Part shown: positions 7,872 to 59,335 of the stretch, piece by piece
Layout of the letters: each line of letters begins with the position of its first letter
Position numbering within the stretch: position 1 is the first letter of the stretch
DNA from: Patescibacteria group bacterium
GTDB lineage: Bacteria > Patescibacteriota > Patescibacteriia > UBA10025 > JAHIVO01
NCBI GenBank assembly: GCA_043808365.1
Contig: JAZDEZ010000015.1
Span: 20,683-84,682 of the forward strand
Direction of reading: 5' to 3'
DNA length: 64,000 nucleotides
Translations under genes and position numbers: made by a program
The notes under the pieces: model-generated
The model's input: the letters and a program-made list of their open reading frames with translations, nothing else
What the model was told of the DNA's origin: nothing
The model's database searches: none

Positions 7872-7954
7872 ATTGTGACGAGGGATCTCACACATTTCCA
7901 GTACCGAGATTGCCACGTCCCCCCAGGGCTCCGCTCGGGGTCCTCGCAATGACA
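7872..7954 (-). repeat. Copy R1 of the GTCATTGCGAGG...GGCAATCTCGGT MITE-like dispersed repeat.
   Basis: Its reverse complement aligns with the 25710-25836 copy (GTCATTGCGAGGA ... GACGTGGCAATCTCGGT). Confidence 0.4.
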
Positions 7955-7994
7955 AGGTAGGGGGCAGCTGGAATTAGCTGGCCCCAATACTTTT

Positions 7995-9146
7995 ATGGTA
8001 AAATATAAGCATATGAAACACGTCGTATTTTCCGGCATCCAGCCATCCGGCCAGCTCCATATCGGCAATTACTTCGGCGCCCTGAAAGGGTGGCTGGAAC
8101 TGCAGGCTGACCCAAACAATGACTGCATCTTTGCCGTGGTCGATTACCATGCCCTGACCGAGGGGCCGAAACCGGCTGAACTGCGCCAGCGTATTTTCGA
8201 CGTGTCTGCGGATTTCCTGGCGGCCGGTCTGGATCCGCACAAGAGCACTATCCTCATTCAATCATTCGTCACGGAGCATACCGACCTGGCCTGGATCCTG
8301 AACTGCGTCACGCCTGTCACCTGGCTGGAACGCGTCCCGACGTTCAAGGACAAAGCCCTTCAGTACCGCCAAAACATCAACATGGGCCTATTAGATTATC
8401 CGGTCTTAATGGCCGCGGACATTTTGCTTTACAAAGCGACGGTGGTGCCGGTCGGCCAGGACCAGTTCGCTCATCTCGAGCTGGCCCGCGAGATCGCCCG
8501 CGCCTTCAACGCCAAATACGGCCAGACCTTCCCCGAGCCGAAAGAGCGCATCACCCTGACGCCGAAAATCATGAGCCTGACCGACCCGACGAAAAAAATG
8601 AGCAAGAGCTACGGCGAAAAATCCTACCTGGCCGTGAACGACACTCCGGCCATAATCACCAGCAAGATCAAGTCCATGGTCACCATCACCGGCAACGAGA
8701 AAGACGTGATCAGCGCCTTCCTGAACCTGACCAAAGAAATCCACCAAGAATTCAAAGACCTGGGCAAGCACTACCTGGCAGACCGCGAACTGCGGACCGA
8801 GGATGACCTGACAAAGCTGGATAAAAAATGGGGTGATACGAAATTCAGGCAGTTCATGGCCCTGTATAATTTTTACATGCTCCTGTACATTTTTGGCGAG
8901 ACCGCTGACCGCAAGAAATTCCTGGAAGCACTGGAAAACAATACCGTAAAATTCTCAGAATATAAACAGCTCCTAGCTGACAAAATCGCCACCTACCCTG
9001 ACTTTGTCAGTTTCCGGAAAAAACGGGCCGAGCTGGTCGCCCACCCGGAAAAAGTCTGGGACACATTGCGCCACGGCAGTGAGCGGGCCCATGCCATCGC
9101 GAGACAAAACATCTCTGATATCAGGCATAAGGTGGGGCTGACATAA
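7995..9146 (+). CDS. trpS: Tryptophan--tRNA ligase.
   Basis: HIGH motif (PSGQLHIGNYFGA), KMSKS motif (KKMSKSYGE), and the class-Ic TrpRS core. The C-terminal region carries an insertion. An alternative start is at ATG 8013. Confidence 0.85.
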   Translation: MVKYKHMKHVVFSGIQPSGQLHIGNYFGALKGWLELQADPNNDCIFAVVDYHALTEGPKPAELRQRIFDVSADFLAAGLDPHKSTILIQSFVTEHTDLAWILNCVTPVTWLERVPTFKDKALQYRQNINMGLLDYPVLMAADILLYKATVVPVGQDQFAHLELAREIARAFNAKYGQTFPEPKERITLTPKIMSLTDPTKKMSKSYGEKSYLAVNDTPAIITSKIKSMVTITGNEKDVISAFLNLTKEIHQEFKDLGKHYLADRELRTEDDLTKLDKKWGDTKFRQFMALYNFYMLLYIFGETADRKKFLEALENNTVKFSEYKQLLADKIATYPDFVSFRKKRAELVAHPEKVWDTLRHGSERAHAIARQNISDIRHKVGLT

Positions 9147-9246
9147 TCTACCCGCACCTCATTGCCCTTGCTGAAAGGGTGGTTTTGTGATACCCTTCTC
9201 TTACAAATAAAAATTGAACTTGAACATTATAACACAAGAGGTGCGT

Positions 9247-10395
9247 ATGATCGACAGTCTTTCCCATTTGAGCCAAAGCGACAGTTATTATGCGCGTGAC
9301 CCACTGACATTGCGTCAATCGCTATTGTCCCGGCGCGACATGAAAATTATCTGTCGCGACAGCCGCCGCCGACACACGCCGAGCGAAACGGACGATACCC
9401 AAGACCATTATGAATGGTGTCGCTACTGTTCAGATGGCACACACCGACATTCCCATCTGACAAATAGGGTGATCGATGAAATATCGATAGACGGACAGCC
9501 GGTGATAGCAGTGACCAAGAAAGACCTGGACGTGACCATTATGGGCCCTGTCATTAAACAGGGCGACGGTAACTTCGGCCTACAGACGAACATTGGTGTT
9601 GATGAAACAGTCGCTATCGGCTCTAGGCATTCCCTACGGATGACGGAGCTGCCGGTGAAATTATTCGCCGCAAGCCTGACCATGTGCTTTAGGCGAATCA
9701 GCGACCTGAACGGCGATTCCCGGTTGGCCAACATCATTATGTGGTCGGAGGTGAACAACCTTGCGCAGGAATTTGGTTTTGTTCATCCGCACTGGCATAT
9801 TGCCGGACACACTGAAGAATTCCCCCGCCCCGGTGAGGAGATGGAGATGTGCTACCACCATTACTACACAATGAGGCATCTCCGCTGTTTGATGTGTGAC
9901 ATTTTAACGGATGAGCTGAGGCTTGAACAGCTAATAGTCGGATTGACGCCGCATTTCGTTGCCTTTATCCCTCGTGCCGCCCGGCATCCATTTGAAACAT
10001 GGGTAGTGCCTAGGCAGCACTCATCAACATTTGAATCCATCTGCGCCAGCCAACCAGACATCAGCCAATTCAATATTGAATTGGCTGGACTACTTAAGGA
10101 TCTTCTAAAGAAAATGGAAAAATTCCTGGGGCCCCGCTGTCCGATCGAGTTGTTACTGTACAATGCGCCACATAACTACCATATCGGCTTTCCGTCTGCC
10201 AGCAGTACGCTGCACGCGGAAGAAATCGATCCGTGCTTCCATACCAGATTCCGTGTCAGACCGATCTTTGCCCAACGCTCCATGCGTTCTAGCGCCACCG
10301 GTATCGCCTTCAACCGCCTCCTCCCTTCCGAATCAGCCCGACTGCTGAATATGCCGGACGATAAAATTGATCAATGGGTCATAAGCACCGATTGA
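9247..10395 (+). CDS. HIT-superfamily, GalT-like two-repeat nucleotidyltransferase/phosphorylase with an N-terminal CxxC.
   Basis: HPHWHIA (H-phi-H-phi-H-phi-phi HIT motif) in the first half. The second half-repeat is HPFETWVVPRQH. EWCRYCSDGTHRHSH is a Zn-site-like element. Start taken at the SD-preceded ATG 9247; the ORF is listed from 9214. Confidence 0.45.
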   Translation: MIDSLSHLSQSDSYYARDPLTLRQSLLSRRDMKIICRDSRRRHTPSETDDTQDHYEWCRYCSDGTHRHSHLTNRVIDEISIDGQPVIAVTKKDLDVTIMGPVIKQGDGNFGLQTNIGVDETVAIGSRHSLRMTELPVKLFAASLTMCFRRISDLNGDSRLANIIMWSEVNNLAQEFGFVHPHWHIAGHTEEFPRPGEEMEMCYHHYYTMRHLRCLMCDILTDELRLEQLIVGLTPHFVAFIPRAARHPFETWVVPRQHSSTFESICASQPDISQFNIELAGLLKDLLKKMEKFLGPRCPIELLLYNAPHNYHIGFPSASSTLHAEEIDPCFHTRFRVRPIFAQRSMRSSATGIAFNRLLPSESARLLNMPDDKIDQWVISTD

Positions 10396-10466
10396 AAATA
10401 GCTCCCAAGCATCAACTACAAACCCAGCCCACTCAGACCAAGAGTGGGCTGTTTTTTTGTAAACAA

Positions 10467-11027: not shown

Positions 11028-11030
11028 AGC

Positions 11031-11279
11031 TTACCGTGTCGTATATGGGATTAAAGCCATAAACCGCGCGCGCTTGACCGCCTGAGCCAGCATGCGCTGG
11101 TGCTTGGAACAGATCCCGGTTTTCTTTCGGGGCAAGATTTTTGCGTATGAGGAAAGGTATTTCTGCATGACCCTTACCTCTCGGTACTCCAGGTCATCAA
11201 TGCCGTTCGTACAGAAATGGCACGCTTTATTTACGATGACCCGCGGGGCGTTATTCTTGTTTGTTCTCATCATTGACAT
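11031..11279 (-). CDS. rpsR: 30S ribosomal protein S18.
   Basis: CHFC...IDDLEYREVRVMQKYLS...KKTGICSKHQRMLAQAVKRARFMALIPY. Confidence 0.85.
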   Translation of the reverse strand: MSMMRTNKNNAPRVIVNKACHFCTNGIDDLEYREVRVMQKYLSSYAKILPRKKTGICSKHQRMLAQAVKRARFMALIPYTTR

Positions 11280-15371: not shown

Positions 15372-15377
15372 AAAGCA

Positions 15378-16440: not shown

Positions 16441-16572
16441 ACATCTGGAAATTTTCGGGCTGAAACGGAGTCAGCGGGAAATTCCCGTATTAACACATTC
16501 TAACATTCTTAAGAATGTTCAAATTTAAATTTACCTCCGAAGATTCGCGCGAACGATTCCATATGGATAGCC

Positions 16573-16802
16573 GCGCACCCAGGGACGGGTGCGCTTGGCA
16601 GAAACAAAAAATCCTATCTCACACTTCTCGCTTCCCGCTTCCCGACTCGCATCCCACATCTGAAACTCACCTCCAACCTCCAACTTCCTATCTAATATCT
16701 CCCCCTACGGGGGATCTCCCGAAGGGAGATAATAACTTACACCCAACAACCAATCTCCTCGCTAACCACTAATTACTAGTGGCTAACAACTAGCGACTAA
16801 CA
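16573..16802 (+). repeat. Copy A of a ~190-230-nt pyrimidine-rich intergenic element: a 5' GC hairpin, CCUCC-containing repeats, and a stop-codon-rich tail.
   Basis: GCGCACCCAGGGACGGGTGCGC hairpin, then ATCCTATCTCACAC...CACCTCCAACCTCCAACTTCC...ACTAATTACTAGTGGCTAACAACTAGC. It aligns with the copy at 28520-28688. Confidence 0.5.
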
Positions 16803-19795: not shown

Positions 19796-19860
19796 ACGCT
19801 AATCATATCATAAATCCGCCCGTCCAACACAGGTATGGCCATGTGCGCCGCCCCACCCTT

Positions 19861-19942
19861 GTCATTGCGAGGAGTGGAACGACGAAGCAATCTGGCCTGC
19901 AAGACTATCCCGAACAGAGCCGAGGAATCCCTCAGTAGATAC
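19861..19942 (+). repeat. Copy R2 of the GTCATTGCGAGGAG MITE-like repeat.
   Basis: GTCATTGCGAGGAGTGGAACGACGAAGCAATCT ... GAATCCCTCAGTAGATAC. Confidence 0.4.
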
Positions 19943-20125
19943 TATAAAACCCTTCACTGAGCTCGGGATGAAGGCTGTGCCCGCGGCGGTATGAATAAAT
20001 GCACGCGCAACCACGGCGGGTTGCGCTCCGAGGGTAATAAAAATCGGGGCGGCGCTATTGCCATCCTTCTGAAACCAACCTCTGACTTCCTGACTAATTT
20101 CTAACAACTAAAAACTAACTACTAA

Positions 20126-21424
20126 TTACTTATTACTAATTACTGAACCATACACCGGATGCTTTTCTGTGAGTTCTTTTACTTTTTTCCTCACCTCTTC
20201 TTTGGCTGATTCTTTTTGTGGGTTATGGATAGTCTCGGCAATCACGTCTGCCACGACTTTCATGTCTTCTTCCGTAAAACCGCGAGTGGTCAATGCCGGC
20301 GTGCCCAACCGGATGCCAGACGGGTCCATCGGCTTACGCGGGTCGAATGGCACGGTATTCTTATTGACCGTAATCCCCACTTCATCCAGTAGGGTCTCAG
20401 CTTCCTGGCCGGTTATGTTCTTGTTGGTTAAATCAACTAATAATAAATGGTTGTCCGTGCCGCCGGTGATCAGCTTGAAATCATGCGCCAAAAGCTGTTC
20501 GGCCAGCGCCTTGGCATTTTTGACAATTTGATGGCCGTACAGCTGAAAAGCCTTGGTTGACGCTTCTTTCAGCGCTACGGCAATGGCCGCGGTCTGATGG
20601 TTATGCGGCCCGCCTTGCAAGCCCGGGAATACTGCCCGGTCAATGAGTTCGGCTAAATTCCACTTTGACCCCGCGTGATATTTTTCCTTCAAACGATCCT
20701 CTTTTTTCGGGCATAAAATCATCGCTCCCCGCGGCCCGCGCAATGTCTTGTGCGTGGTCGTCATAATGACATCCGCATGATCAACGGGCGACTGGTGCGC
20801 GCCGGCAATCACCAACCCGGCCACATGGGAAATATCAGTCAGTAAATACGCTCCCACCTCGCGTGCTATCCGGCCGAACGCGGCAAAATCAAATTCACGC
20901 GGATACGCCGTCGCGCCGGCGATAATCATTTTCGGCCGCTCCTTTTTTGCCAGTTCCAGCACCTCTTCATAATTTATCAGTTGGGTTTCCTTGTCGACGC
21001 CATACGGCACTGAATGGTAGTACCGTCCGGAAAAATTCACTTTCCACCCGTGCGTCAGATGCCCGCCATGCGGCAGGCTCATGCCCATGACTTTGTCCCC
21101 CGGCTCCAGCAACGCGAAATACACCGCCTGGTTGGCCGGCGAACCGGAGTACGGCTGGACATTGGCGTGCTCCACGCCGAATAATTGCTTGGCGCGGTCA
21201 CGGGCGATATTCTCAATCACGTCAATAAATTCATTTCCGCCGTAATAGCGTTTGCCGGGATACCCTTCGGAATACTTGTTCGTGCCAATCCCGCCCAAAG
21301 CTTCGAGCACAGCCTTGGACACATAGTTTTCCGAAGGGATCATTTCCAAGCCGTCCTGCTGTCGTTTGAGTTCTTGGCTAATGGCCGAGAAAATCTCCGG
21401 ATCTTCTTTTTGTAATGGTTCCAT
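20126..21424 (-). CDS. glyA: Serine hydroxymethyltransferase.
   Basis: 432 aa. The PLP-lysine motif TTTHKTLRGPRG and HLTHG are present. Confidence 0.9.
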   Translation of the reverse strand: MEPLQKEDPEIFSAISQELKRQQDGLEMIPSENYVSKAVLEALGGIGTNKYSEGYPGKRYYGGNEFIDVIENIARDRAKQLFGVEHANVQPYSGSPANQAVYFALLEPGDKVMGMSLPHGGHLTHGWKVNFSGRYYHSVPYGVDKETQLINYEEVLELAKKERPKMIIAGATAYPREFDFAAFGRIAREVGAYLLTDISHVAGLVIAGAHQSPVDHADVIMTTTHKTLRGPRGAMILCPKKEDRLKEKYHAGSKWNLAELIDRAVFPGLQGGPHNHQTAAIAVALKEASTKAFQLYGHQIVKNAKALAEQLLAHDFKLITGGTDNHLLLVDLTNKNITGQEAETLLDEVGITVNKNTVPFDPRKPMDPSGIRLGTPALTTRGFTEEDMKVVADVIAETIHNPQKESAKEEVRKKVKELTEKHPVYGSVISNK

Positions 21425-21467
21425 ACCTGCATTGTACTGGAAAAATGGCCGGATGGCAAAAATGCTC

Positions 21468-21496
21468 TTGACATGATCTAATGTTTACTGTACAAT
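21468..21496 (+). promoter_or_regulatory. Near-consensus sigma70 promoter driving the retron locus, divergent from glyA.
   Basis: TTGACA, 17-nt spacer, TACAAT. Confidence 0.5.
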
Positions 21497-21502
21497 ACGG
21501 GT

Positions 21503-21778
21503 TGCCAAATTACGTGGCTATGGCGATTCGCCATATTTGATGGTTTTTGAATCTCGAAAGAACTTTTTCAACTCAAAGAAATACCTCCTCTATGCGCGTC
21601 TATCCGCGTCCCTAGCATAGCCTAGGGGTTACTGTTTTCCGCACACAAGGTACAGATTGTAATTGGTACTTTACTGAAATAAGGCTGAAATTACTGTTTA
21701 TCAGTTATAGATAAATTTTTTCTAAAAGGTCGGGGATGACACTCATCCAAAAAACCATTAAAGAAAGGAGGCACAACA
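21503..21778 (+). ncRNA. Candidate retron non-coding RNA (msr/msd) region. Its boundaries are not defined.
   Basis: ~280 nt with no ORF, lying between a strong promoter and the retron-type RT gene. Several stem-loops are present (ATGGCGA-T-TCGCCAT, CCCTAG-CATAGC-CTAGGG, ACTG...CAGT). I could not identify unambiguous a1/a2 repeats by eye. Confidence 0.3.
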
Positions 21779-21985
21779 ATGAAAAAGAAATATTCGGGAA
21801 GAAGGGTAATTTCCACTCTTTCGCTGCGTTACAGTAGGTCCGTTAACTCCTCTGACTCAAATTTAGGCGCACTGCGACAGTTCATAAATGGATGTAAAAA
21901 ACTGTGGAAAATCATATCAACCCTACCTTTTTATCAATTAACTCGCCCGCTAATCACGGGCGAGGTTTTAATACAACAAATTTAA
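21779..21985 (+). CDS. Small basic hypothetical protein (68 aa) overlapping the RT start in another frame.
   Basis: Best SD in the locus (AAAGAAAGGAGGCACAACA-ATG). No recognisable domain. It may instead be non-coding msd sequence. Confidence 0.3.
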   Translation: MKKKYSGRRVISTLSLRYSRSVNSSDSNLGALRQFINGCKKLWKIISTLPFYQLTRPLITGEVLIQQI

Positions 21986-22890
21986 AATTAAAAAACTTAT
22001 CTGATCTCGCCAAATTAATAAATACTCCTGTCTGGTTTATAAATAAATTGATCCAAACAAGACAAAAACGATATAACTTTTGGAATTACCCCAAAAAAAG
22101 TGGCGGTATTAGAACTTTGTCGAGACCAGATGCTGAATTACGGTTTGTCCAAGAAAAGATATATCAAAATATTCTCCGTTTTGTACCTCTTCCTGAATAC
22201 ATTCACTCACAAATAGGCCATTCCCATGTACAACACGCAGTTAGCCATCAAGGTAAACCGCTGGTTTTACTTTTTGATATTGCCGACTTTTTCCCAAGCA
22301 TTAGTACCAGAATGGTAAAAAACGCATTAACCCATGCGGGATTTACTGAAATTGTCGCAAAAAAAATAGCTAACCTGTGCACATTATCGAATAAAAGTAC
22401 ATCGCATGGATTTCTCCCTCAAGGAACCTCAACCAGTCCAGCATTGGCAACACTAGTGGCGACATCGCTTGATCATCGTCTATGGAAACTGAGTTCTAAA
22501 AATAATTGGATCTATACCCGTTTTGCTGATGATATCGCAATTTCAGGAGGTCTAGGCCTAAGACGAGCAAAAAAACTAATACTCAATATTATCAACAGTT
22601 CCAATTTCAAGGTAAGGGAGTCAAAAACTGAAGAAATAATCCCCGGACGCCGTAATAAAATAGTAGGGCTGCAACTTTATGGAAAAAATATTACGCCGCC
22701 AAGAGAATATTACAAACTTTTACGATCTATGATCCACCATCTTCAAACCAATAAAATACGTGGAAAAGCCAGACTGAAATTAAGAAAAAGTATTCAATCA
22801 AGGCTTTCATACGGTCTTTACGTTGAAAAAATAAGCAACACAAAACAAGGAAAGTTTTTTCGGCTTGCCCAAGCAATAACTATCGCTTAA
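21904..22890 (+). CDS. Retron-type reverse transcriptase (GTG start).
   Basis: RT motifs 1-2 YPKKSGGIRTL, motif A LLFDIADFFPSI, motif B' LPQGTSTSPALATL, motif C YTRFADDIAI. The thumb region RRNKIVGLQLYGKNITPPREYYKLLRSMIHHL parallels the retron-RT VTG...IHH region. 328 aa is a typical retron RT length. Confidence 0.8.
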   Translation: MENHINPTFLSINSPANHGRGFNTTNLKLKNLSDLAKLINTPVWFINKLIQTRQKRYNFWNYPKKSGGIRTLSRPDAELRFVQEKIYQNILRFVPLPEYIHSQIGHSHVQHAVSHQGKPLVLLFDIADFFPSISTRMVKNALTHAGFTEIVAKKIANLCTLSNKSTSHGFLPQGTSTSPALATLVATSLDHRLWKLSSKNNWIYTRFADDIAISGGLGLRRAKKLILNIINSSNFKVRESKTEEIIPGRRNKIVGLQLYGKNITPPREYYKLLRSMIHHLQTNKIRGKARLKLRKSIQSRLSYGLYVEKISNTKQGKFFRLAQAITIA

Positions 22891-25606: not shown

Positions 25607-25709
25607 ACGTTTTATTTAATTCCTCAAGCGTCAAACAACCATGAAAACATGACATAGAAGTATAGTAATGGTACGGTTTTAACGCCTCTCAGTCAACCGC
25701 CCCCACCAT

Positions 25710-25836
25710 GTCATTGCGAGGAGCGACCCTGAACTCGATTCAGGGGAGCGACGTGGCAATCTCGGTGCAGTCCAACCAACAAGATCCTCACGTCGTGTCG
25801 CCTCTTTTCATTCGGCGCCACTCCTCAGGATGACAC
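25710..25836 (+). repeat. Copy R3 (full length, ~127 nt) of the MITE-like repeat with imperfect terminal inverted repeats.
   Basis: Left end GTCATTGCGAGGAG, internal GACGTGGCAATCTCGGT and AAGATCCTCACGTCG, right end CACTCCTCAGGATGACAC (reverse complement GTGTCATCCTGAGGAGTG). Confidence 0.5.
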
Positions 25837-25852
25837 ATGGGGCGGTAAGAAT

Positions 25853-28438: not shown

Positions 28439-28519
28439 ACTAAGCTATTCCACTGTTCACGTCAAGTCTAGATAGGCAAAAGGATTTTCCGATGGCGTGC
28501 TTTTTTATTAAAAATAGTC

Positions 28520-28688
28520 GCGCACCCAGAGACAGGTGCGCTCGGAGGATATTCATTATCCTACCTCACCCATCTGAATCCAACATCCAACCACTAACTT
28601 CCTAACCAACTTCTTACCCTCCCCCTTATAGCTCCCATAGCTCTTCTATCCCCACTAACTACTAACCTACTAATGGCTAGCTACTAGC
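28520..28688 (+). repeat. Copy B of the pyrimidine-rich intergenic element. Its tail overlaps the last codons of Elp3.
   Basis: GCGCACCCAGAGACAGGTGCGC hairpin after a T-run, then ATCCTACCTCACCC...CATCCAACCACTAACTTCC...CTAATGGCTAGCTACTAGC, collinear with copy A. Confidence 0.5.
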
Positions 28689-31062: not shown

Positions 31063-32409
31063 ATGAACATCAACGCGAAAATCTTCAAGTCATACGACAT
31101 CCGCGGCATCTACCCCGCCGACCTGAACGAAGATACCGCTTACCTGGTCGGCCAGGCATTTGCCCAGCTGACCAAGGCTAAAAAAGTGGTGGTCGGACGG
31201 GATATGCGCCTGGGTTCGCCAACGCTCACTGAAAAGCTTGTCGCCGGCCTCATGAGCCAAGGCGTTGACGTGGATAATATCGGGCAAGTGCCGATTGACG
31301 CCGTATATTTCGCCACGGGCAAGTTTGACTATGACGGTGGTATTATGACTACGGCTTCGCATAACCCCAAAGAATACAACGGCTTCAAGATGGTTATCAA
31401 GAAAGGCAAAAGTTTGCAGTGGATCAGGGGCATTGAACTGTACGAGTTCATGTGCGACAAAACTTTCTCCGCGGCATCCCAGCCTGGCTCAACGAAAGAC
31501 AGGGATATTATTGAGGATTATCTCCAGCATATCTTGTCTTTCGTTGACGTAAAAAAAATAAAGCCCTTCAACATCGTGGTCGACGCCGGCAATGGTATGG
31601 CCGGCAAAATAATGCCGTTGCTCTTTAAGCGCCTGCCCTGCCGCCTGATCCCCCTCAACTTCGAGCTGGATGGGAACTTTCCCGGCCATCCCTCAAATCC
31701 ATTGCTGCCGGAATCACAGGTCCAGATCAAAAAAAAGGTGGTTGAAGCTAAGGCTGATTTCGGCATTATCATGGACGGTGACACGGACCGGCTGTTCTTC
31801 ATAACCGAACAGGGCGAATTCATCCGGGCCGATTCCACGCTTCTTATCCTGGCAAAATTTTTCATCGAGAAAAATCCCGGCGCTGGCATTGCTTACAATG
31901 TCATTTGCAGCAAGGCCGTGCCCGAGCGGATCAGAGAGTGGGGCGGCCGGCCGATCCGCAGTCCCGTGGGTTTTGCCAACCTGGCCGAAGCCATGCGGCG
32001 CGAGAATGGCGATATGAGCGGCGAACTCTCGGCCCATTACGCCTTTAAAGACAACTACTACGCCGATTCCGGTTTCATCGCTTTCGTCATCCTTTTAAGC
32101 TTGATTTCAGAGCATAATAAGCCGCTCTCGGCCATGACTGCCGGACTGAACCCATACGCCAAGGCGGATGAAGTCAATATTGAAGTGAATAACATTCCTA
32201 AAATAATCGCCATGGTCAAGGCCAAATACCAAGATGGCAAGCAGGACGAAATGGACGGCGTCACGATCGAATATCAGGACTGGTGGGTCAATGTCCGGCC
32301 GTCAAACACCGAACCGCTCCTGCGAATAACGCTTGAGGGGAATACCAAAAAAATAATGCTGCAAAGACTGGCAGAGGTCCAGGACTTCATTAAAGGAGTG
32401 GCCAAATGA
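31063..32409 (+). CDS. Phosphomannomutase/phosphoglucomutase (alpha-D-phosphohexomutase).
   Basis: Active-site loop TASHNPKEYNGFK, Mg site DGDTDR, sugar-binding GELSAHY. Confidence 0.8.
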   Translation: MNINAKIFKSYDIRGIYPADLNEDTAYLVGQAFAQLTKAKKVVVGRDMRLGSPTLTEKLVAGLMSQGVDVDNIGQVPIDAVYFATGKFDYDGGIMTTASHNPKEYNGFKMVIKKGKSLQWIRGIELYEFMCDKTFSAASQPGSTKDRDIIEDYLQHILSFVDVKKIKPFNIVVDAGNGMAGKIMPLLFKRLPCRLIPLNFELDGNFPGHPSNPLLPESQVQIKKKVVEAKADFGIIMDGDTDRLFFITEQGEFIRADSTLLILAKFFIEKNPGAGIAYNVICSKAVPERIREWGGRPIRSPVGFANLAEAMRRENGDMSGELSAHYAFKDNYYADSGFIAFVILLSLISEHNKPLSAMTAGLNPYAKADEVNIEVNNIPKIIAMVKAKYQDGKQDEMDGVTIEYQDWWVNVRPSNTEPLLRITLEGNTKKIMLQRLAEVQDFIKGVAK

Positions 32410-33071
32410 TTAAGGCGATCGCTTTCGACCTCGACGGCGTCCTGATTGACTCCGAGCCGCTTTGGGAACGATCGACATGGGAGTATGTAAAAAATAAATG
32501 CGGAACGACGCACCGGCGCCAATTCCGGTCACGCGACCTTGACCGGGAAGTCCGCGGCCGTACCCAGCGGTACATCAGCACGTATCTCAAGCGACACCTA
32601 TCGTTACCCGACTCGCCCCAGCAAATCGTAAAGGACAGGCTTCAGATGCTTTTTGACCTTTTTAACAAACGCCTGACAATGGCCCCGGGCGGCCTGGCAC
32701 TCTTGAAATTATTGAAAAAGAGTAAATACCCAGTAATTCTCGCCTCGTCATCCCCGCGACGGGTAATTGACTTCGTCATGCGTCGTTTCCTGTTAAAAAA
32801 ATATTTTGTAAAAATTATATCTGGGGATGACATGAAATACAGCAAGCCGCATCCTTGGGTGTATAAGCAAGCCGCGAAAATCTTGCACGTCAAACCTGCC
32901 GAAATGCTAGTCATTGAGGACTCGATCAGCGGCGTCCAGGCCGGTCTGAAATCCGGGGCAAGAGTCATTGCCATGAAAAAGCCTTACACGCCCAAAAAAT
33001 ATACCAAAGACGCGATACGCGTGATTAAAAGCCTCAATCAACTCTCGCTTGAACAAATTCAACGCCTTTAA
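32406..33071 (+). CDS. HAD-superfamily hydrolase (beta-phosphoglucomutase-like subfamily).
   Basis: Motif I AIAFDLDGVLIDSE, and the later motifs (ASSS, K...EDSISG). It overlaps the previous gene by ATGA. Confidence 0.7.
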   Translation: MIKAIAFDLDGVLIDSEPLWERSTWEYVKNKCGTTHRRQFRSRDLDREVRGRTQRYISTYLKRHLSLPDSPQQIVKDRLQMLFDLFNKRLTMAPGGLALLKLLKKSKYPVILASSSPRRVIDFVMRRFLLKKYFVKIISGDDMKYSKPHPWVYKQAAKILHVKPAEMLVIEDSISGVQAGLKSGARVIAMKKPYTPKKYTKDAIRVIKSLNQLSLEQIQRL

Positions 33072-33188
33072 CAATTCCAACATCTTCAACGTCATAAACA
33101 GTTTCAACAATTTGAACGGTTTCAACATCTTCAACATTTTCTTCCCACTAACTACTAATGGCTAACTTACTAATTACTAACTAACTAG
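33072..33188 (+). repeat. Partial copy C of the pyrimidine-rich element (CAACATCTTCAAC repeats plus stop-rich tail).
   Basis: TCCAACATCTTCAACGTCAT...TTCAACATCTTCAAC...CCCACTAACTACTAATGGCTAACTTACTAATTACTAACTAACTAGCC, ending immediately before the murI ATG. Confidence 0.35.
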
Positions 33189-47138: not shown

Positions 47139-47305
47139 GTTTTAGCCTGATTCGAGCAAATAATTGATTCATCCCCAACCTTAGCTATTTTCCGGTGAAA
47201 ATGGCACTAAAATCAAGAATCCTCAATATAATTAAAAAACAGATACCAACAGGATATCCACATGGTTAATGACCAATTGACCAAACCCCAATATCCAATT
47301 TTTAT

Positions 47306-48466: not shown

Positions 48467-48500
48467 ATGATTTCTTTATTGCTCATCTACAAAATACCTT

Positions 48501-48546
48501 GTCATTGCGAGGAGGCCGAGTGAACCGAGGCTGACGAAGCAATCTC
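48501..48546 (+). repeat. Copy R4 (short) of the MITE-like repeat, immediately 3' of the GIY-YIG gene.
   Basis: GTCATTGCGAGGAGGCCGAGTGAACCGAGGCTGACGAAGCAATCTC. Confidence 0.45.
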
Positions 48547-48853
48547 ATCGCTTTTTATCATGCCACTCTTCACTTAAATCATTCCATTCTGGGTTAATAC
48601 TATTTATTAAATTTATTTTCTTTTGTCTTGATCCTCCTTTAATCTGTTTTTCCCTGGCAATTGCATCCTCAATATATTGAAATTCCTCATAATACACCAA
48701 CTTGGTGATATTATACTTCTTAGTAAATCCACCAACTTGTTTTTGTTTATGTTGCAAAACTCGCCCCTCAAGTCCACCGCTGACTCCCGTATAAAGAGTA
48801 GTATGCGCTTTATTGGTCATGATGTAAACGCAATAACTGCGTTCGTAAGACAT
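48545..48853 (-). CDS. GIY-YIG nuclease superfamily protein (small stand-alone type).
   Basis: YCVYIMTNKAHTTLYTGVSGGLEGRVLQHK is the GIY...YIG...R...H hallmark. 102 aa. Confidence 0.75.
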   Translation of the reverse strand: MSYERSYCVYIMTNKAHTTLYTGVSGGLEGRVLQHKQKQVGGFTKKYNITKLVYYEEFQYIEDAIAREKQIKGGSRQKKINLINSINPEWNDLSEEWHDKKR

Positions 48854-48875
48854 AGATTGCGTTTCTTACTTAGTA

Positions 48876-48957
48876 GATTGCTTCGCTCCGCTCGCAATGA
48901 CAAAAAACATGTGTCATTGCGAGGAGGACGAGGTACGAGGACGACGAAGCAATCTCT
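48876..48957. repeat. Copies R5a (inverted, 48876-48902) and R5b (direct, 48914-48957) of the MITE-like repeat, immediately 5' of the GIY-YIG gene.
   Basis: AGATTGCTTCGCTCCGCTCGCAATGAC, then GTCATTGCGAGGAGGACGAGGTACGAGGACGACGAAGCAATCTC. Confidence 0.45.
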
Positions 48958-50265
48958 TTACTGTAACAACTCTTTCAAAATCACCGCATCGCTCCAATCA
49001 ACCAGCTTCCCGTTTTTCAAGGCCATCTTCGTTTCCCCACCCTTACCCGTCACAATTACAATATCGCCCGGCTGGGCCAACTCAATTGCCCTTTTTAATG
49101 CCTGTTTTCTGTCTAGAATCTTTTCCACTTTCCCACGCGCCATTTGCAACACGCCATCTGCCACCTCATTGATAATCGCCTGCGGATCCTCGTTATACGG
49201 ATCCTCATTCGTCACAATAATATGGTCAGTATATTCTGCGGCTAACCGGCCGAGGATCGGACGTTTCGCTTTGTCGCGGCCTCCGCCCTGCGAACCGAGG
49301 ACGGAAATTATTTTTTTCGGCTGGAAAGTTTTAAGGGTTTGGTATACCGCTTCAAGCGAGGCCGGTTCATGAGCGTAATCAACAAATACGCGGAAACCTT
49401 TATCATTCTTGATTTCTTCCATCCGGCCGGGTAGTCCAGTGACTTTTTCTAATGCAACTTTTATATGTCCAAGTTCTATATGCTGTGACATACCTACAGC
49501 GATGGCAGCTAAGGCATTGTATATATTAAATTTCCCCAACAATGGCAGCCGGAAGAGTACATGATTGACCGCGAACTCACTGCCTGTTTCACTAACCTTC
49601 ACCTGTTCACTAAAAACTACCTCCACATCGTCCGATAATGCAGGTGTGTCTACATGCAATCCATATGCCCACTGACCATCTGCGGCAGTCGCAAGAAATT
49701 TTGAACCTTCCGAATCATCAGAATTGGCCACAACAATTTTTTTAACCAAATGGCCATCAATAACTTTGCGGTAACCATGGGCCAGTTCCTTGAACAGGGA
49801 TAATTTTGCCGCCCGATAATTTTCAAAACTGCCATGCGACTCAATATGCTCCGGCGATAAGTTCGTGAAAACGGCTATGTCATAGTCAATCCCGACGTGG
49901 CGGTGTTGGCTGATGCCTTCGGACGAAGTTTCTATGACCGCATACTGGCATCCGGCTTTCACCATCTGCCGGAGCATTTTCTGGAGCTTGAACCGGCCGG
50001 GCATAGTCTGCTTCAGGTCATTTGACCATTCTCGCTCGGCTATTTTAAATAGTACTGTGGTAGTCAAGCCGACCTTGTACCCGGCGGATTCCAAAACTTT
50101 CGCAATTAAATAAGCCGTGGTGGACTTCCCTTTTGTGCCAGTCACGCCGATAATAATCATTTGCCGTGACGGGAAACCGTACAGCTCAGCGCCGATGTGG
50201 GCGAGCGCCAAATGGTACCAGTTTAATAATGATTGTGGGATGAATTTTTTAATCAGGGCTTTCAT
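48958..50265 (-). CDS. Mur ligase family protein (MurE/MurF-like UDP-MurNAc-peptide ligase without the N-terminal domain).
   Basis: ATP-binding IIGVTGTKGKSTTAYL, the central Mur ligase domain, and the C-terminal DIVIVTGKGGE motif. 435 aa. Confidence 0.65.
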   Translation of the reverse strand: MKALIKKFIPQSLLNWYHLALAHIGAELYGFPSRQMIIIGVTGTKGKSTTAYLIAKVLESAGYKVGLTTTVLFKIAEREWSNDLKQTMPGRFKLQKMLRQMVKAGCQYAVIETSSEGISQHRHVGIDYDIAVFTNLSPEHIESHGSFENYRAAKLSLFKELAHGYRKVIDGHLVKKIVVANSDDSEGSKFLATAADGQWAYGLHVDTPALSDDVEVVFSEQVKVSETGSEFAVNHVLFRLPLLGKFNIYNALAAIAVGMSQHIELGHIKVALEKVTGLPGRMEEIKNDKGFRVFVDYAHEPASLEAVYQTLKTFQPKKIISVLGSQGGGRDKAKRPILGRLAAEYTDHIIVTNEDPYNEDPQAIINEVADGVLQMARGKVEKILDRKQALKRAIELAQPGDIVIVTGKGGETKMALKNGKLVDWSDAVILKELLQ

Positions 50266-50752: not shown

Positions 50753-51073
50753 TCATCTGGACTTGGGATTCCTGGTCTCATTGATAAGCCAGCGCTCATA
50801 CGATCGCAATGTGCGGCCGACGGGCAGCTCGACAATGCATGGCACGTCAAACGGATGCTCAGTGTTAATCAGCGCCTTAATCGTCCTGAAATATTTTTTT
50901 TGGGTGGCGATCAGAGTAACGATCCCCTTTGTCTGCACCATTTTACCTTTCCACCAGTACATATCTTCCTGCCTGATAAAATTGATGCAGGCCGCCAGGT
51001 GCTTCTGCAGGATTAATTTTGATATCCGCCTGGCTTCCTTAGTATTCGGATAATGGACGTAAATGTGGATCAT
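50753..51073 (-). CDS. cutA: Divalent-cation tolerance protein CutA.
   Basis: HLAACINFIRQEDMYWWKGKMVQTKG...HPFDVPCIVELPV matches the CutA1 core. Start taken at the internal Met (MIHIYVHY). The upstream 26 listed codons overlap repeat R6. Confidence 0.6.
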   Translation of the reverse strand: MIHIYVHYPNTKEARRISKLILQKHLAACINFIRQEDMYWWKGKMVQTKGIVTLIATQKKYFRTIKALINTEHPFDVPCIVELPVGRTLRSYERWLINETRNPKSR

Positions 51074-51127
51074 TTTTTTTCGTTTGTAAGTAAGTGTTGC
51101 GCCGCCCTTCTCCTTACTCTTTTTACT

Positions 51128-51226
51128 GTCATTGCGAGTGAAACGAAGCAATCTCTGCTATCTACTATTATAAGATCCTCACGTCGTTCCACTTCACTTC
51201 GTTCAGTGTCACTCCTCAGGATGACG
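51128..51226 (+). repeat. Copy R6 of the MITE-like repeat.
   Basis: GTCATTGCGAGTGAAACGAAGCAATCTCTG...AAGATCCTCACGTCG...CACTCCTCAGGATGACG. Confidence 0.5.
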
Positions 51227-51243
51227 CCAGGGGGCGGCGTCAC

Positions 51244-52879: not shown

Positions 52880-54031
52880 TTACTTCTTCAGTACGCCAAC
52901 CTTATCCAGCTTCTCCCAGGGGAATTCCACGTCAGTCCGGCCGAAATGCCCGTAGGCGGCAGTCTTCTCATAGATCGGCTGCTTAAGGTGCAGTTGCTCG
53001 ATGATATCCGCCGGTTTTAACGGGAAATGCTTCCTGACCAAATCTTCCAGATCACCGTTCTCCAGCTTGCCGGTGCCGAACGTATTGATCATGATCGAAA
53101 CCGGCTCGGCCACGCCGATAGCATAAGCCAACTGGACTTCGCACCGCTTGGCCAGGCCCGCGGCGACAATATTTTTTGCGATATAACGCGCGGCGTATGA
53201 AGCGCTGCGATCGACTTTGGTGACGTCTTTGCCGGAAAAACACCCTCCTCCATGCGCGCCTACCCCGCCATAGGTATCAACAATTATCTTGCGGCCAGTC
53301 AGGCCCGTGTCGCCTGGAGGCCCGCCAATGACAAAGCGGCCAGTGGCGTTAATAAAAAAATTAATTTTTTCATCGTACCAATCTCCCAAAACTGGTTTGA
53401 TGACATACTCCTTAATGTCTGCCCGAAGTTTCTCCATTTCCACGTCTTCCGAATGATGCGCGGCAATGACCACCGTCTCAATGCGATGCGGCTTGTCGTC
53501 CGCATACTCTACGGTCACCTGCGATTTGCCGTCGGGCCTTAAATAAGGAAGCTGGCCGCTCTTGCGAACCTCGGCCAGTTTATGCGTGAGCCGGTGAGCC
53601 AGTGAAATGGTCAATGGCATGTACTCCGGCGTCTCGTCGCAGGCGTAGCCGAACATCAGGCCCTGATCGCCGGCCCCCTGCTCCTTGCGCTCGCCCGTGC
53701 CGTCCACGCCCTGGGCGATGTCGGGCGATTGTTCGTGGATGGTGCTGATCACGCCCACATCCTTATAGCAGAAACCGTACTCGGATTTGTCGTACCCGAT
53801 TTTCTTGAGTGTCCGGCGGACGATCGCCTGGATGTCCACATAGCCGGTCGTCTTGACCTCGCCGCCGACCAGCACCAGGCCGGTGGTGACAAAACATTCC
53901 ACGGCCGAGTGGCAGTCCTTATCCTGCTTCAGCATGTCGTCATACACCGCATCCGAGATTTGGTCGCACACCTTGTCCGGGTGCCCCTCCGTGACCGACT
54001 CCGAGGTGAATAATTTTTTCTGATGTGACAT
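52880..54031 (-). CDS. metK: S-adenosylmethionine synthetase.
   Basis: [29 protein letters not shown]. Confidence 0.9.
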
Positions 54032-54061: not shown

Positions 54062-54248
54062 GTAAAAAATAAAAAAAATCTCCTATCAGATAAGAGATTA
54101 CTACAGAGAATTCACCTCTTATCTATCCCCCGCACCTTGAGGCGTGGGAGCTGGACTTAGCACCCGAACTTCGTCTTGTGCCCGAATGGGTTGCTGGAGT
54201 GTCAACGGCCCAGTTGCCTACACTCACTCTTGATAATTGGTTGGGTTG
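54062..54248 (-). ncRNA. SAM-I (S-box) riboswitch with a terminator expression platform, in the metK leader.
   Basis: Read on the minus strand: UUAUCAAGAG...CUGGGCC...AGCAACC...GGUGCUAAGUCCAGC...P4 hairpin...GAUAGAUAAGAGG, which follows the SAM-I consensus order. It is followed by the AATCTCTTATC-TGAT-AGGAGATT hairpin and U8. Confidence 0.65.
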
Positions 54249-56831: not shown

Positions 56832-58127
56832 TTATCTCCACAGCACCGGCCGGTCTTTCGGCACGATCTCCACCCACGTCGTGCCACGCACGAACTGCAC
56901 CTCCTGGCCGTTAAGATAATAGTATTTCGTCCGGGAAGACATCAGCGGCTTGCGCCAGATGATCTGGGACAATTTCCCGTCCTGGAGCAGCCAGCCGCGC
57001 CCGCCGCCCGTTATCTGAAGGGCTAAATGCTTCTGCCAATCAATTACTTTTTCTTTATCGATCAGCTGGACCACTACGTTTTTTGCCGATAAGATCGATT
57101 TGGCGGGCAAATTCGCATCCCCGTGCGGTTTGCCGCCATTATATCTTAAAAATGAATTTGAGGCGCGATCGTAGGCGTACGTGACGATATATTGGCTGCC
57201 GGACTTGAAATCAATAATAAGTTTTTTCTTTTCATTCGGCCGGTTCTTCAGCGCAGACTCATCCTTGAATTTCCACGACTCAAACGTAGCTACGACGGAA
57301 GCCAGCTTGAAATCATTTTTCATCTTTTTAATTAACGTCCCGTTCGTGAACAGGTTATGCGTGGTGGCAGTTTTCCCCGCCCGGAAAAAATACCTGGCTG
57401 TTTTATTAACAAGTGCGTCAATACTCCGGACCTTCATCTTACCGAATTCGTTGAAAGCATCGCGGCTGCCGCCGGCGTGCATAACTGTGGCGCCATACTC
57501 CTTTGCCCAGTCAACATAATACGGACGGGCAGAACGGACCGGACCGATTTTCGGCTGGTTATCCAATACGGTCAGCATGAGAAATCTCGGGATGCCCCCT
57601 TCAGCCAGCGCCTCATAGACTATTGAAGCGGAGGCGAGACCGGATTGCGGCCGGACTGACGCCAAATTTTCTACTATCATGCCGACCGGCTGAACGTTCG
57701 CCTGATTGTATGGCACGATCACGCCGTCTATGCGGCGCGGCCAGGTCTTGGGAACGGTGAAGGTGATTTTATCGGTCCAGGCGCTGGTTTCACTTAACCG
57801 CCTGGCTTGTACTTGAATCGTGTGATTGCCAGCGGCGAATTTCAGCTTCGGCTTGAAGACAAAACTGGCTGTGCCCTTTTTCCCGTTCTTCGCTTTTACG
57901 CCGCCCGCGAACTTCCCGTCAATGACGAAAAAAACCGATGAATCATTTTTCACAAGACCGGTAATCACCAATTGCGTATCGGGCGGCAGGGCGTAATTAT
58001 TTTTTGGCTGGACGATCGTCGGCGATGATAAGGCTGATGCCGGAGATGCCATGCCAAACACAACCAGCCCTGACATGAGTACTGCCAAGGCAATGATATT
58101 TTTTATATTTGATTTTTTATTTTTCAT
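56832..58127 (-). CDS. Secreted hypothetical protein, possibly DUF3048/YerB-like.
   Basis: Signal peptide. ARPQSGL...IVYEALAEGGIPRF resembles the YerB-type family. Confidence 0.4.
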   Translation of the reverse strand: MKNKKSNIKNIIALAVLMSGLVVFGMASPASALSSPTIVQPKNNYALPPDTQLVITGLVKNDSSVFFVIDGKFAGGVKAKNGKKGTASFVFKPKLKFAAGNHTIQVQARRLSETSAWTDKITFTVPKTWPRRIDGVIVPYNQANVQPVGMIVENLASVRPQSGLASASIVYEALAEGGIPRFLMLTVLDNQPKIGPVRSARPYYVDWAKEYGATVMHAGGSRDAFNEFGKMKVRSIDALVNKTARYFFRAGKTATTHNLFTNGTLIKKMKNDFKLASVVATFESWKFKDESALKNRPNEKKKLIIDFKSGSQYIVTYAYDRASNSFLRYNGGKPHGDANLPAKSILSAKNVVVQLIDKEKVIDWQKHLALQITGGGRGWLLQDGKLSQIIWRKPLMSSRTKYYYLNGQEVQFVRGTTWVEIVPKDRPVLWR

Positions 58128-58196
58128 CTTTCAATATCAGTATAGCACAAAACGGGCCATATTTCAATAGCAATATTAATAACTCCTCTGTTACTA

Positions 58197-58682
58197 TCAA
58201 ATATTTCGGCAATCCGGGTCACGATAGTCCGCATCTGCTTCCTTTAACGAATTCATCCATGTTTTACAATTCCACTCATTCTTCCACTCATCACCTTCCC
58301 AGGCACCGCATGTTCCAATCCAATGACCCCATTTATTATAAAATACGGTACCGCCATCAAAACATTTCACAGCACATTTATCGTTTTCATCACGACGGGA
58401 ACTATATGTAGCATCGTCAGGCGGACCACCGCATTGGAACGCGTAGACTCGGCCTCTCCAAGTATTCCAAGAATAAACACGGTAATGGTCACCTTCGCTA
58501 TTTTTTATTTGTTCGATAAGTTCCCGGTCAACCGGACCAAGCTTCAAATAAAAATATCCCACAGTAAAAATTATTAACAGCACAGCGCATATAAGGACCC
58601 AAAAATACCATACGCTAAATATTTTTTTAGTACTCTGTGTTGAAGGTTGAATGTGGTTCATAAATTCTTTTAAATTTATCAT
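58197..58682 (-). CDS. Hypothetical N-terminally anchored protein.
   Basis: 161 aa with one TM segment. Confidence 0.4.
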   Translation of the reverse strand: MINLKEFMNHIQPSTQSTKKIFSVWYFWVLICAVLLIIFTVGYFYLKLGPVDRELIEQIKNSEGDHYRVYSWNTWRGRVYAFQCGGPPDDATYSSRRDENDKCAVKCFDGGTVFYNKWGHWIGTCGAWEGDEWKNEWNCKTWMNSLKEADADYRDPDCRNI

Positions 58683-58810
58683 CCCCTCCAGCGGTCTTCG
58701 GAGATGTCTCGATTTAAATTAATAAATCACTAACATTAAAATTAACCAGAGTATCAAAAAACCAAAAGAAGCAGTCGCCATAATCAACATCTTTTTAACA
58801 AATACAAGTA

Positions 58811-59152
58811 TTATTCTTTCCCATATTTCCTTTTACCGGAATCATACTTGTATTCTTCGCAAAGCGCTTTAATGAACCCAGCCGCGTTTGATAGCTCTGC
58901 CTCATTGACAGGCTTGCCCGGTGAAGTCGTTTCTGCAAAAATTGTCATTACGTTTATCTCTAATTGAGTCGCCCGTTTATCTCCTTTCTGCCGCATCACT
59001 TTTTCAAGACCCTCTGCCCGCCAGGCAAAATCAATAGCTTCTTTAGTACTTTCACTTATTTCATTCTCTTTAATACCACCTTCACCTGCTTCGAATTCTT
59101 TTGCAGCCCGTTGTTCTTCATGTGACGTTGGATTGCCTTGTTCGTTTGCCAT
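58811..59152 (-). CDS. Hypothetical acidic protein.
   Basis: 113-aa ORF. Confidence 0.35.
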   Translation of the reverse strand: MANEQGNPTSHEEQRAAKEFEAGEGGIKENEISESTKEAIDFAWRAEGLEKVMRQKGDKRATQLEINVMTIFAETTSPGKPVNEAELSNAAGFIKALCEEYKYDSGKRKYGKE

Positions 59153-59186
59153 ATTTTTCCTTTCATTACACTTTCTTAATTTTTTA

Positions 59187-59335
59187 TGCCCTCAGTAGTC
59201 CCGCCATCCCGTCATTCGACGGGACAGGTTCGGCGAGATCTTCGTCCCTCGGCTTCACTCGGGACTACGACCCCGCGGTGCAACTCGGGGTCGCCCTGAG
59301 CTTCGCCGAAGGGCGAGAATCTCATAATATGTTTC
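59187..59335. repeat. Degenerate MITE-like repeat copy (R7) bounded by a 13-nt direct repeat of the tRNA-Arg 3' end.
   Basis: ATGCCCTCAGTAG occurs at 59187-59199 and again at 59338-59350. In between lie GTCATTCGACGGGAC and AAGGGCGAGAATCTCAT, which resemble the repeat-family cores. Confidence 0.3.

Follow-up and report, generated by a model that had tools for sequence, protein, structure and literature searches.

We found that a family of short dispersed repeats in a window of 64 kb from a metagenome-assembled genome of the Patescibacteria (candidate phyla radiation, CPR) quite probably consists of Ssn-related hairpin motifs, that is, of cognate DNA sites for the small GIY-YIG nuclease encoded by a gene in the same window (48545-48853, (-) strand; here called ssn). 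The gene and its hairpin modules would then form a unit resembling an insertion sequence, of which tail-to-tail doublets of modules would be gene-less derivatives. The repeats, which had earlier been described as a family of miniature inverted-repeat transposable elements (MITEs; hereafter the original prediction), are together with ssn a structural variant of the system described in 2025 for SsnA of Neisseria meningitidis (Chenal et al., Nat Commun 2025, PMC11893778). What they add to that system is a variant motif class that is missed by the published pattern, and comparative evidence of mobility. The genome was seen only through these 64 kb, and the comparison set consisted of the 80 closest homologous ssn loci, taken from at least 14 phyla (L-numbers denote fetched loci).

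The dispersed repeat family itself is real. The cores GTCATTGCGAGGAG and GACGAAGCAATCTC both had six matches in the window at two mismatches or fewer (0.48 and 0.47 expected, respectively), and CCTCAGGATGAC had two exact matches. A grammar search for modules (GTC followed by an arm of 5 nt, further on by the reverse complement of that arm, and by C) returned nine modules, identical to the top nine hits of a covariance model that was trained solely on modules of other genomes and run unfiltered on the window. The model gave 9 clear copies (E 1.7e-9 to 0.13) and 2 borderline ones, and in doing so returned the loci of the original prediction. The list of copies given there holds for the nine modules, all at the predicted loci, and is doubtful for the degenerate copy at 59187-59335, which is not securely a member of the family because the covariance hit there (59233-59269, (-)) was only borderline (E 2). 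Every module locus lies between open reading frames (ORFs), as had been predicted; ORFs cover ~88% of the window, and the chance of six independent loci all being intergenic is ~2e-6. The spurious ORF extensions ascribed to the repeats were borne out: the Pfam domain of CutA starts only at residue 29 of ORF 50753-51151 and the relatives start at an ATG that corresponds to window position 51073, and ORF 19862-20107 matched no Pfam family. Recognising the modules during annotation removes such spurious ORFs and false N-terminal extensions.

The repeat unit is a module of 26-52 nt, built of GTC, a 5-bp stem (ATTGC or ATCCT), GA, a variable inner hairpin, GA or GAA, the returning stem arm and C. 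Modules begin with GTCAT and end with ATC(TC), with the flanks GTCAT and ATC present in all nine window modules, in which the inner part measures 7-33 nt. The unit is thus not the full-length copy of ~100-130 nt that had been proposed: 25710-25834 and 51128-51225 each consist of two tail-to-tail modules. The 14-bp imperfect terminal inverted repeats ascribed to these copies dissolve in the same way, as the only differences between GTCATTGCGAGGAG and GTCATCCTGAGGAG are three bases of the stem (TGC in one, CCT in the other), each of which is compensated in its own module (ATTGC/GCAAT versus ATCCT/AGGAT).

Covariation was counted over the modules in the 80 fetched related loci, with a test on arm types that presupposes no pairing. 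The type of the 5' arm predicted that of the 3' arm: ATTGC was answered by GCAAT in 272 of 288 modules, ATTCT by AGAAT in 26 of 28 and ATCCT by AGGAT in 15 of 17. The original prediction had set precisely such a covarying fold against mobile DNA, and a covarying fold is what we observed. GA followed the 5-bp stem in 274 of 300 modules and was opposed by GAA on the return strand in 240 of 300, many modules had a second GA/GA layer, and the inner closing pair was Watson-Crick in 90% of the modules (56% expected if the positions were independent), with all four pair types present. Stem type tracked protein similarity only weakly, a hint that in the window-type class the stem sequence matters less than the conserved parts that stay unpaired (GTC head, GA/GAA loop and 3' C), unlike in Neisseria, where the stem sequence was required (PMC11893778).

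By analogy with Ssn, the fold is most likely that of a single-stranded DNA hairpin rather than of an RNA. Among the 26-nt minimal modules, 51 of 68 carry a stem of 2 bp capped by a GNA triloop, with GCGAAGC as the most frequent form. GCGAAGC is the classic extraordinarily stable DNA mini-hairpin; GNA/GCGAAGC loops, like layers of tandem G·A, typify stable hairpins of DNA (PMC13037366). A structured RNA element (a terminator, a stabiliser or a small RNA) present in many copies, the covariation arising from RNA folding, could explain the compensatory changes in two helices and the intergenic position of the copies, but we consider it highly improbable. No Rfam 15 family was found on the modules at the gathering threshold or at E<=1 (the window as a whole gave only one tRNA and one SAM riboswitch at the gathering threshold), a T-run is lacking, and the modules occur in both orientations to their neighbours, including antisense and between divergent genes. 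They are, moreover, missing from the orthologous intergenic regions of close relatives, and they are closely associated with the gene of a nuclease, the characterised homolog of which, SsnA, does not bind RNA (PMC11893778).

Three of the nine modules surround ssn. The one that gave the best covariance hit of the window (48872-48905, 44.7 bits, E 1.7e-9) is the 26-nt module 48876-48901 (-), which reads GTCATTGCGA-GCGGAGC-GAAGCAATC, with GCGGAGC as an inner GNA mini-hairpin; it shares the strand of ssn and precedes the gene, with 22 nt between its tail and the ATG. Downstream of the gene and inverted is the 44-nt module 48501-48544 (+) (hit 48497-48548, 40.7 bits, E 2.1e-8), the tail of which abuts the ssn stop codon, the gene strand reading TGA-GATTGC. 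These two modules bracket the gene. The third, 48913-48954 (+) (42 nt; hit 48909-48958, 39.3 bits, E 4.5e-8), faces module 48876-48901 head to head at a distance of 11 nt, and its tail is 3 nt from the stop codon of murE. The presence somewhere of an autonomous partner with matching ends had been envisaged for the repeats; a gene flanked by inverted modules does exist, in the form of ssn, and its product is not a transposase.

The other six modules are dispersed. A single module of 32 nt is found at 19861-19892 (+) (hit 19857-19896, 35.6 bits, E 4.4e-7) and shows two GA layers (GA-G-GA-GTGGAAC-GA-C-GAA). Module 7908-7953 (-) (46 nt, ATTGC stem; hit 7904-7957, 30.4 bits, E 1e-5) has a decayed partner at 7860-7890 (+), a borderline hit (E 0.6) with an ATCCC/GGGAT stem that has lost its GTC head. 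The left and right halves of one tail-to-tail doublet are 25710-25761 (+) and 25783-25834 (-), both of 52 nt. The former (hit 25706-25765, E 9.2e-5) has an ATTGC stem around a 7-bp inner hairpin (CCCTGAA/TTCAGGG), with a DNA fold of -11.5 kcal/mol (z -3.3), and the latter (hit 25779-25838, E 0.046), with an ATCCT/AGGAT stem, keeps the module grammar with three compensated stem changes. The second doublet pairs the 26-nt module 51128-51153 (+), GTCATTGCGA-GTGAAAC-GAAGCAATC (hit 51124-51157, 43.8 bits, E 3.1e-9), with the 52-nt module 51174-51225 (-), which again has an ATCCT/AGGAT stem (hit 51170-51229, E 0.13).

The gene ssn is present once in the window and encodes a single-domain protein of 102 aa that matches the Pfam GIY-YIG family (PF01541, E 3.9e-14) over residues 7-81; no second domain was found beside it. 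Compared with the SsnA homolog of Neisseria gonorrhoeae, which was taken from a chromosome where canonical NTS copies surround it, the protein showed 42% identity over 90 aa (pairwise E 3e-24), and the tblastn value of E 2e-15 passes the homolog cut-off used by Chenal et al. (tblastn E<1e-10). Escherichia coli YhbQ, of a different small GIY-YIG family, gave a local match of 20.8 bits over 25 aa. Residues Y10, Y21 and E68 align with Y6, Y17 and E64 of the meningococcal protein, mutations of which abolish cleavage (PMC11893778). An alignment of 33 sequences, among them members from Neisseria, Rhizobium, Aeromonas, Spirosoma and Planktothrix, shows no exception at Y21 or E68 and has Y10 in at least 90% of the sequences. 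The exact protein sequence is annotated in a Patescibacteria group metagenome-assembled genome (a separate look-up by identical sequence gave no entry), and thousands of homologs of 60-85% identity were found in Patescibacteria, Chloroflexota, Cyanobacteria, Bacteroidota, Desulfobacterota, Nitrospirota, Planctomycetota and other phyla. No model in NCBIfam or PADLOC matched the nuclease, searches of the PDB by sequence and profile returned no structure of the Ssn clade (only distant UPF0213 proteins and UvrC), and no relatives were found on viral contigs. The gonococcal ssnA homolog (NZ_CP119142.1; L081, 1495-1773) is itself apparently frameshifted near its 5' end in this strain, reading MHGLYFSKPT* before the remainder continues in a different frame; PLSDB files the record, a chromosome of 2.17 Mb, as a plasmid.

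The likeness to the published system is close. SsnA of N. meningitidis is a 94-aa GIY-YIG protein that binds the NTS repeat CGTCATTCCCGCGMAVGCGGGAATCYRG, only as single-stranded DNA and only on one strand, cuts a few nucleotides 5' of GTCAT and reduces transformation by NTS-bearing DNA; 'Ssn-related motifs' (SRMs) usually flank the genes of its homologs (CDD cd10448) (PMC11893778). The window shares with this system the small single-domain GIY-YIG partner, including the catalytic residues (Y, Y and E), a hairpin of fixed orientation between 5' GTCAT and 3' ATC(Y), intergenic repeats on both sides of the gene and, apparently, an abundance of repeats only where the gene is present. It differs from it in its host, a member of the Patescibacteria, in a nuclease activity that is here predicted, and in the hairpin itself. 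The NTS takes the form CGTCAT-stem-loop-stem-ATCYRG with a continuous 9-bp stem and a 3-nt loop (PMC11893778), whereas the window modules have a 5-bp stem that is interrupted by a GA/GA(A) purine loop and followed by an inner hairpin of variable length. A model trained on window-type modules detected the Neisseria NTS copies weakly, with 10-14 bits. The main text of Chenal et al. mentions neither an interrupted-stem variant nor Patescibacteria or Cyanobacteria, and in the literature at large the repeat sequence turned up only in fortuitous matches to primers.

The arrangement of modules around ssn is conserved far beyond the window. Modules were found on both sides of ssn within 250 nt in 64 of the 80 loci, usually in the layout of the window, and the module-ssn-module units had a median length of 400 bp. 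Altogether these loci hold 450 modules (68 expected); the density was 0.49 per kb in the ssn loci, where it still reached 0.12 per kb at distances of more than 400 nt from ssn, whereas 85 control loci had 0.026 per kb. In close relatives that lack ssn, the covariance model gave no hits in 64.5 kb of syntenic DNA, against 9 in the 64-kb window. Single modules, head-to-head pairs and arrays were all common besides tail-to-tail doublets. In Rhizobium and Aeromonas, canonical SRMs flank the gene in the (+)/(-) layout of the window. We had considered that outward-facing heads might distinguish the flanking modules from those of Neisseria (inward), and we rejected this on account of the layout shared with Rhizobium and Aeromonas and the alternating arrays of Neisseria itself.

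The fetched loci of Nostoc and Calothrix are packed with 26-nt modules. Elhai et al. in 2008 (Genome Res 18:1484) reportedly described small dispersed repeats of ~21-27 nt with a mobile appearance in the cyanobacterium Nostoc. On plasmid p1 of Planktothrix agardhii (L082, 1498-1782) an ssn unit with arrays of ATTCT/ATCCT modules lies between a type IIL MmeI restriction-modification gene and drmA of DISARM, and thus sits inside a defence island.

Short extragenic palindromes around a single gene also recall the repetitive extragenic palindromic (REP) sequences and their composites, the bacterial interspersed mosaic elements (BIMEs) and the REP doublets forming hairpins (REPINs), which are kept by a REP-associated tyrosine transposase (RAYT), a domesticated HUH Y1 transposase of the IS200/IS605 type. 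The resemblance to REPINs in particular is close: both are extragenic palindromic units with hairpins, without target-site duplications and with one associated gene flanked by repeats, and both often form inverted doublets, which in the case of REPINs are likely the replicative unit (PMC3116915). We nevertheless hold it to be most improbable that the window family is of this kind. The flanked gene in the window and in 64 of the 80 loci encodes a hydrolytic GIY-YIG nuclease, not a Y1/HUH transposase, no Y1_Tnp family was found in the window ORFs scanned, and the module differs in sequence and grammar, its oriented flanks (GTCAT ... ATC) being shared with SRM/NTS and not with known REPs.

At least two of the module loci are insertions relative to close relatives. 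In the window, 491 nt separate murE from the NUDIX gene (the ssn block, 48467-48957, no strand assigned), comprising three modules and ssn, while the same spacer measures 9 nt in L088 and 4 nt in L085 and consists of 74 nt of unrelated sequence in L089. MurE identity to the window is 85-87% in L088 and L089 and 79% in L085. The second insertion is a block of 170 nt (51074-51243, no strand assigned) that begins after the stop codon of a gene of 132 aa and runs up to the true start of CutA, in which a GC-rich inverted repeat (GCCGCCCCC ... GGGCGGCGC) encloses the doublet 51128-51225; in L085, L086/L087 and L180/L181 just 1 nt lies between the gene of 130-136 aa and cutA. The comparison of empty with filled sites, which had been suggested with the original prediction, thus gave junctions of 1-9 nt in the relatives at both the ssn unit and the CutA doublet. 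Module 19861-19892 is also absent from the same intergenic region of L090 (94% SHMT identity). The whole spacer is rearranged there, and this place downstream of SHMT was dropped as a third clean empty site.

Filled and empty sites at orthologous positions are what a classical MITE family would give, that is, a non-autonomous cut-and-paste family with terminal inverted repeats, mobilised in trans by a DDE transposase elsewhere in the genome. Like MITEs such as the Correia elements of Neisseria, the window copies are small, non-coding and intergenic, have inverted ends when they consist of two modules, and vary in presence between strains. In the window genome the inverted similarity of the two-module copies reaches ~15 nt past the heads, and GCCCC occurs at most 16 nt upstream of 5 of the 9 module heads (chance 4e-9). 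The longer motif (C)CGCCCC is found 4-7 nt upstream of GTCAT at 5 of the 6 dispersed heads (7953 (-), 19861 (+), 25710 (+), 25834 (-) and 51225 (-)) and at 0 of the 3 heads flanking ssn (P ~4e-9). That this upstream motif is a pre-existing insertion target was rejected at the CutA site, where the empty sites lack the motif and the motif lies inside the inserted block; the octamer GCCGCCCC showed no window-wide enrichment. The GC-rich inverted repeat likewise belongs to the inserted block there, which means that the copied unit in this genome is longer than the module pair.

The MITE reading is nonetheless very unlikely. No target-site duplication was present at the two mapped insertions (the ssn block and the doublet block at CutA), although a search for such duplications had been suggested, and there was no excess over chance in 39 compact ssn units elsewhere; nor did we find a DDE, HUH or recombinase family, or any transposase family, among ~55 window ORFs. 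The supposed terminal repeats are self-contained hairpin modules, their differences being compensated inside each module, and the same modules commonly occur alone, in head-to-head pairs and in arrays. Across phyla, moreover, the gene bracketed by modules encodes a GIY-YIG nuclease and not a matching DDE transposase. What stands of the view of the repeats as non-autonomous transposons is that they are inserted, dispersed and non-coding.

The murE|NUDIX site also holds ssn in L175 and L178 (83.5% and 84.5% protein identity), although MurE of L175 is only 62% identical to that of the window. Four-fold synonymous identity between the window and L175 was 63.6% for ssn (33 sites), 37.4% for MurE (131 sites) and 30.8% for the NUDIX gene (Fisher p 0.01 when ssn is compared with MurE alone, and 0.004 when the NUDIX sites are added to those of MurE). 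The downstream module 48501-48544 is identical to its L175 counterpart at 43 of 44 nt, compared with 57% at the third codon positions of ssn and 79.6% nucleotide identity over the ssn ORF, and relative to L178 its inner stem carries a compensated change (GCC/GGC to GTC/GAC). The next-closest ssn homologs (~73% nucleotide identity) have the same module layout in unrelated gene neighbourhoods. The discordance between ssn and MurE at a shared junction requires either repeated entry or repeated precise loss, and both are behaviours of mobile DNA.

The alternative that the Ssn sites are ancient and vertically inherited, without current or recent mobility, the patchiness being due to repeated precise deletion, is very unlikely. 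It would be in line with the divergence of the window copies (the doublet halves 51174-51225 and 25781-25842 are 79% identical over 62 nt), with the slow evolution of the ssn protein, with the lack of target-site duplications and with the occupation of the murE|NUDIX site in three lineages. It needs, however, several independent clean losses that each left a junction of 1-9 nt, and it does not account for synonymous sites that are less diverged in ssn than in the flanking genes, for closest homologs in unrelated neighbourhoods or for 60-70% protein identity across at least 14 phyla.

Several observations weigh against the reading of the repeats as hairpin sites of the ssn nuclease. The published SRM pattern (HGTCWYN(0-2)YYVSBRHN(0-5)WNVSBRGN(0-2)RNCYNB) matches no window module (0 hits) and, of the 80 related loci, only 1 has a match close to ssn, even though the pattern does recover the NTS consensus and the copies of Neisseria, Rhizobium and Aeromonas; it misses the window class because the continuous stem of ~9 bp and the 3-nt loop are replaced by a stem of just 5 bp, an internal loop of purines and an inner hairpin that is free. 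Nearest-neighbour DNA folding of the short window modules was no better than that of shuffles (z -0.8 to +1.4). The structure therefore rests on covariation and on what is known of G·A and GNA motifs, which the energy model does not contain; covariation alone cannot separate a DNA hairpin from an RNA hairpin. The contrast in synonymous sites stands on 33 ssn sites. GIY-YIG enzymes are hydrolytic and have, to our knowledge, no strand-transfer activity, which leaves the spread of copies unexplained. Finally, changing the stem sequence abolished activity in Neisseria (PMC11893778), and the window carries both ATTGC and ATCCT stems.

Taken as sites of the ssn nuclease, the modules would act as follows. 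Whenever the relevant strand is single-stranded (as the lagging-strand template, as incoming transforming or conjugating DNA or in repair intermediates), the module may fold, and the nuclease, by analogy with SsnA of Neisseria, would bind the folded module and cut its strand at a point a few nucleotides 5' of GTCAT, ignoring double-stranded DNA, RNA and the complementary strand. Binding and cleavage specific for single-stranded DNA are thus predicted for the window protein from its homology. Its role is possibly to restrict or modulate incoming single-stranded DNA, which we propose since some Patescibacteria, namely members of the Saccharibacteria, are naturally competent (PMC10633639). As regards spread, the gene and its two inverted modules constitute a compact unit of ~400 bp resembling an insertion sequence, module singlets and tail-to-tail doublets would be gene-less derivatives of it, and both the ssn unit and doublets have entered intergenic sites in this lineage.

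Two known kinds of element invite comparison with such a unit. Elements of the IS200/IS605 family ('peel and paste') have sub-terminal hairpins that are recognised on one strand (as is predicted for the window modules), lack target-site duplications, leave precise empty sites and are very small, all as in the window; both of their end hairpins are on the same strand, and their TnpA forms covalent 5'-phosphotyrosine intermediates. The window unit differs in having two modules on opposite strands and no evident strand-transfer enzyme. Free-standing GIY-YIG homing endonucleases of the I-TevI type likewise share with ssn the catalytic domain, the look of a small selfish gene and the occupation of the same site in divergent hosts. 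Such homing enzymes bind DNA through a domain of its own and cleave empty alleles as double-stranded DNA, whereas ssn encodes a bare catalytic domain with putative sites inside the element.

A bolder possibility, which we put forward tentatively and with some doubt, is that the module-ssn-module unit of ~400 bp moves autonomously and represents a mechanistic class of mobile element that is new, in which a bare GIY-YIG nuclease acting on single-stranded hairpin ends would allow insertion without target duplication, precise excision and a preference for certain sites. Doublets would be its miniature derivatives, and the interrupted-stem module with its GA loop would define a large class of SRMs. 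Chenal et al. likened the NTS-ssnA-NTS layout to an insertion sequence and raised mobility only as a hypothesis (PMC11893778). If the bolder proposal is correct, the window and its empty-site relatives provide the first comparative evidence for that hypothesis, and the interrupted-stem class spans Patescibacteria, Chloroflexota, Cyanobacteria, Bacteroidota, Desulfobacterota and others, where the published pattern misses it. With clean filled and empty sites, and with a unit that recurs at a single junction in divergent hosts, the mobility of SRM-ssn-SRM units becomes directly testable. A grammar that escapes the published pattern also means that the reach of the family across phyla is probably underestimated. 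As far as we know, no site-specific nucleases other than the Ssn enzymes restrict their cutting to single-stranded DNA; each pair of enzyme and motif is hence a potential tool, and the window supplies a candidate pair from an uncultivated lineage of Patescibacteria.

The doubtful member of the family, at 59199-59337 (no strand assigned), is a GC-rich, strongly self-pairing insert of 139 nt (DNA fold z -4.7) that holds only head-like and tail-like fragments of modules. It is bracketed by a 13-nt direct repeat, ATGCCCTCAGTAG (at 59186 and 59338), which is the 3' end of a tRNA-Arg(CCG) gene (59339-59410, (-)). The bracketed stretch (59186-59350) looks like an att-type duplication from integration at the tRNA gene, or else like a different small insertion element.

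Further repeats were seen. A second hairpin family, GCGCGCACCC-N6-GGGTGCGC with conserved flanks, has copies at 16567-16628, 28514-28575 and 19985-20020, the two long copies being 76% identical over 62 nt. It is kept at the same position downstream of SHMT in relatives (L090, L091) and is therefore probably terminator-like. AT-rich simple repeats that are rich in stop codons (TAGTAATTAGTTA... and CCAATATCCAAT/ATTGGTAATTGG) recur in many intergenic spacers of the lineage, often right after genes (16762-16791, 20101-20155, 33141-33170, 47264-47299, 59457-59561 and 60438-60473 in the window; also in L089, L090, L175 and L178). A 9-nt periodic repeat (AACnnnTTC...) runs in six overlapping copies (33052-33144) across the 3' end of a HAD-hydrolase ORF (32406-33071) and the spacer that follows.

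The window also encodes a stand-alone retron-type reverse transcriptase of 328 aa (21904-22890, (+); Pfam RVT_1 E 2e-16, PADLOC RT_III-A E 2.4e-60 and RT_II-A E 3.1e-59). The gene is preceded on the same strand by a non-coding stretch of 480 nt (21425-21903) that could hold msr/msd, and has no obvious adjacent effector gene, its neighbour being a GNAT gene on the opposite strand. Other genes and elements include a heliorhodopsin gene (6262-7056, (+); Pfam PF18761 E 4.7e-100), here in a Patescibacteria genome, and an S-adenosylmethionine (SAM-I) riboswitch (54116-54239, (-); Rfam RF00162, 55 bits) that lies directly upstream of the S-adenosylmethionine synthetase gene (52880-54031, (-)).

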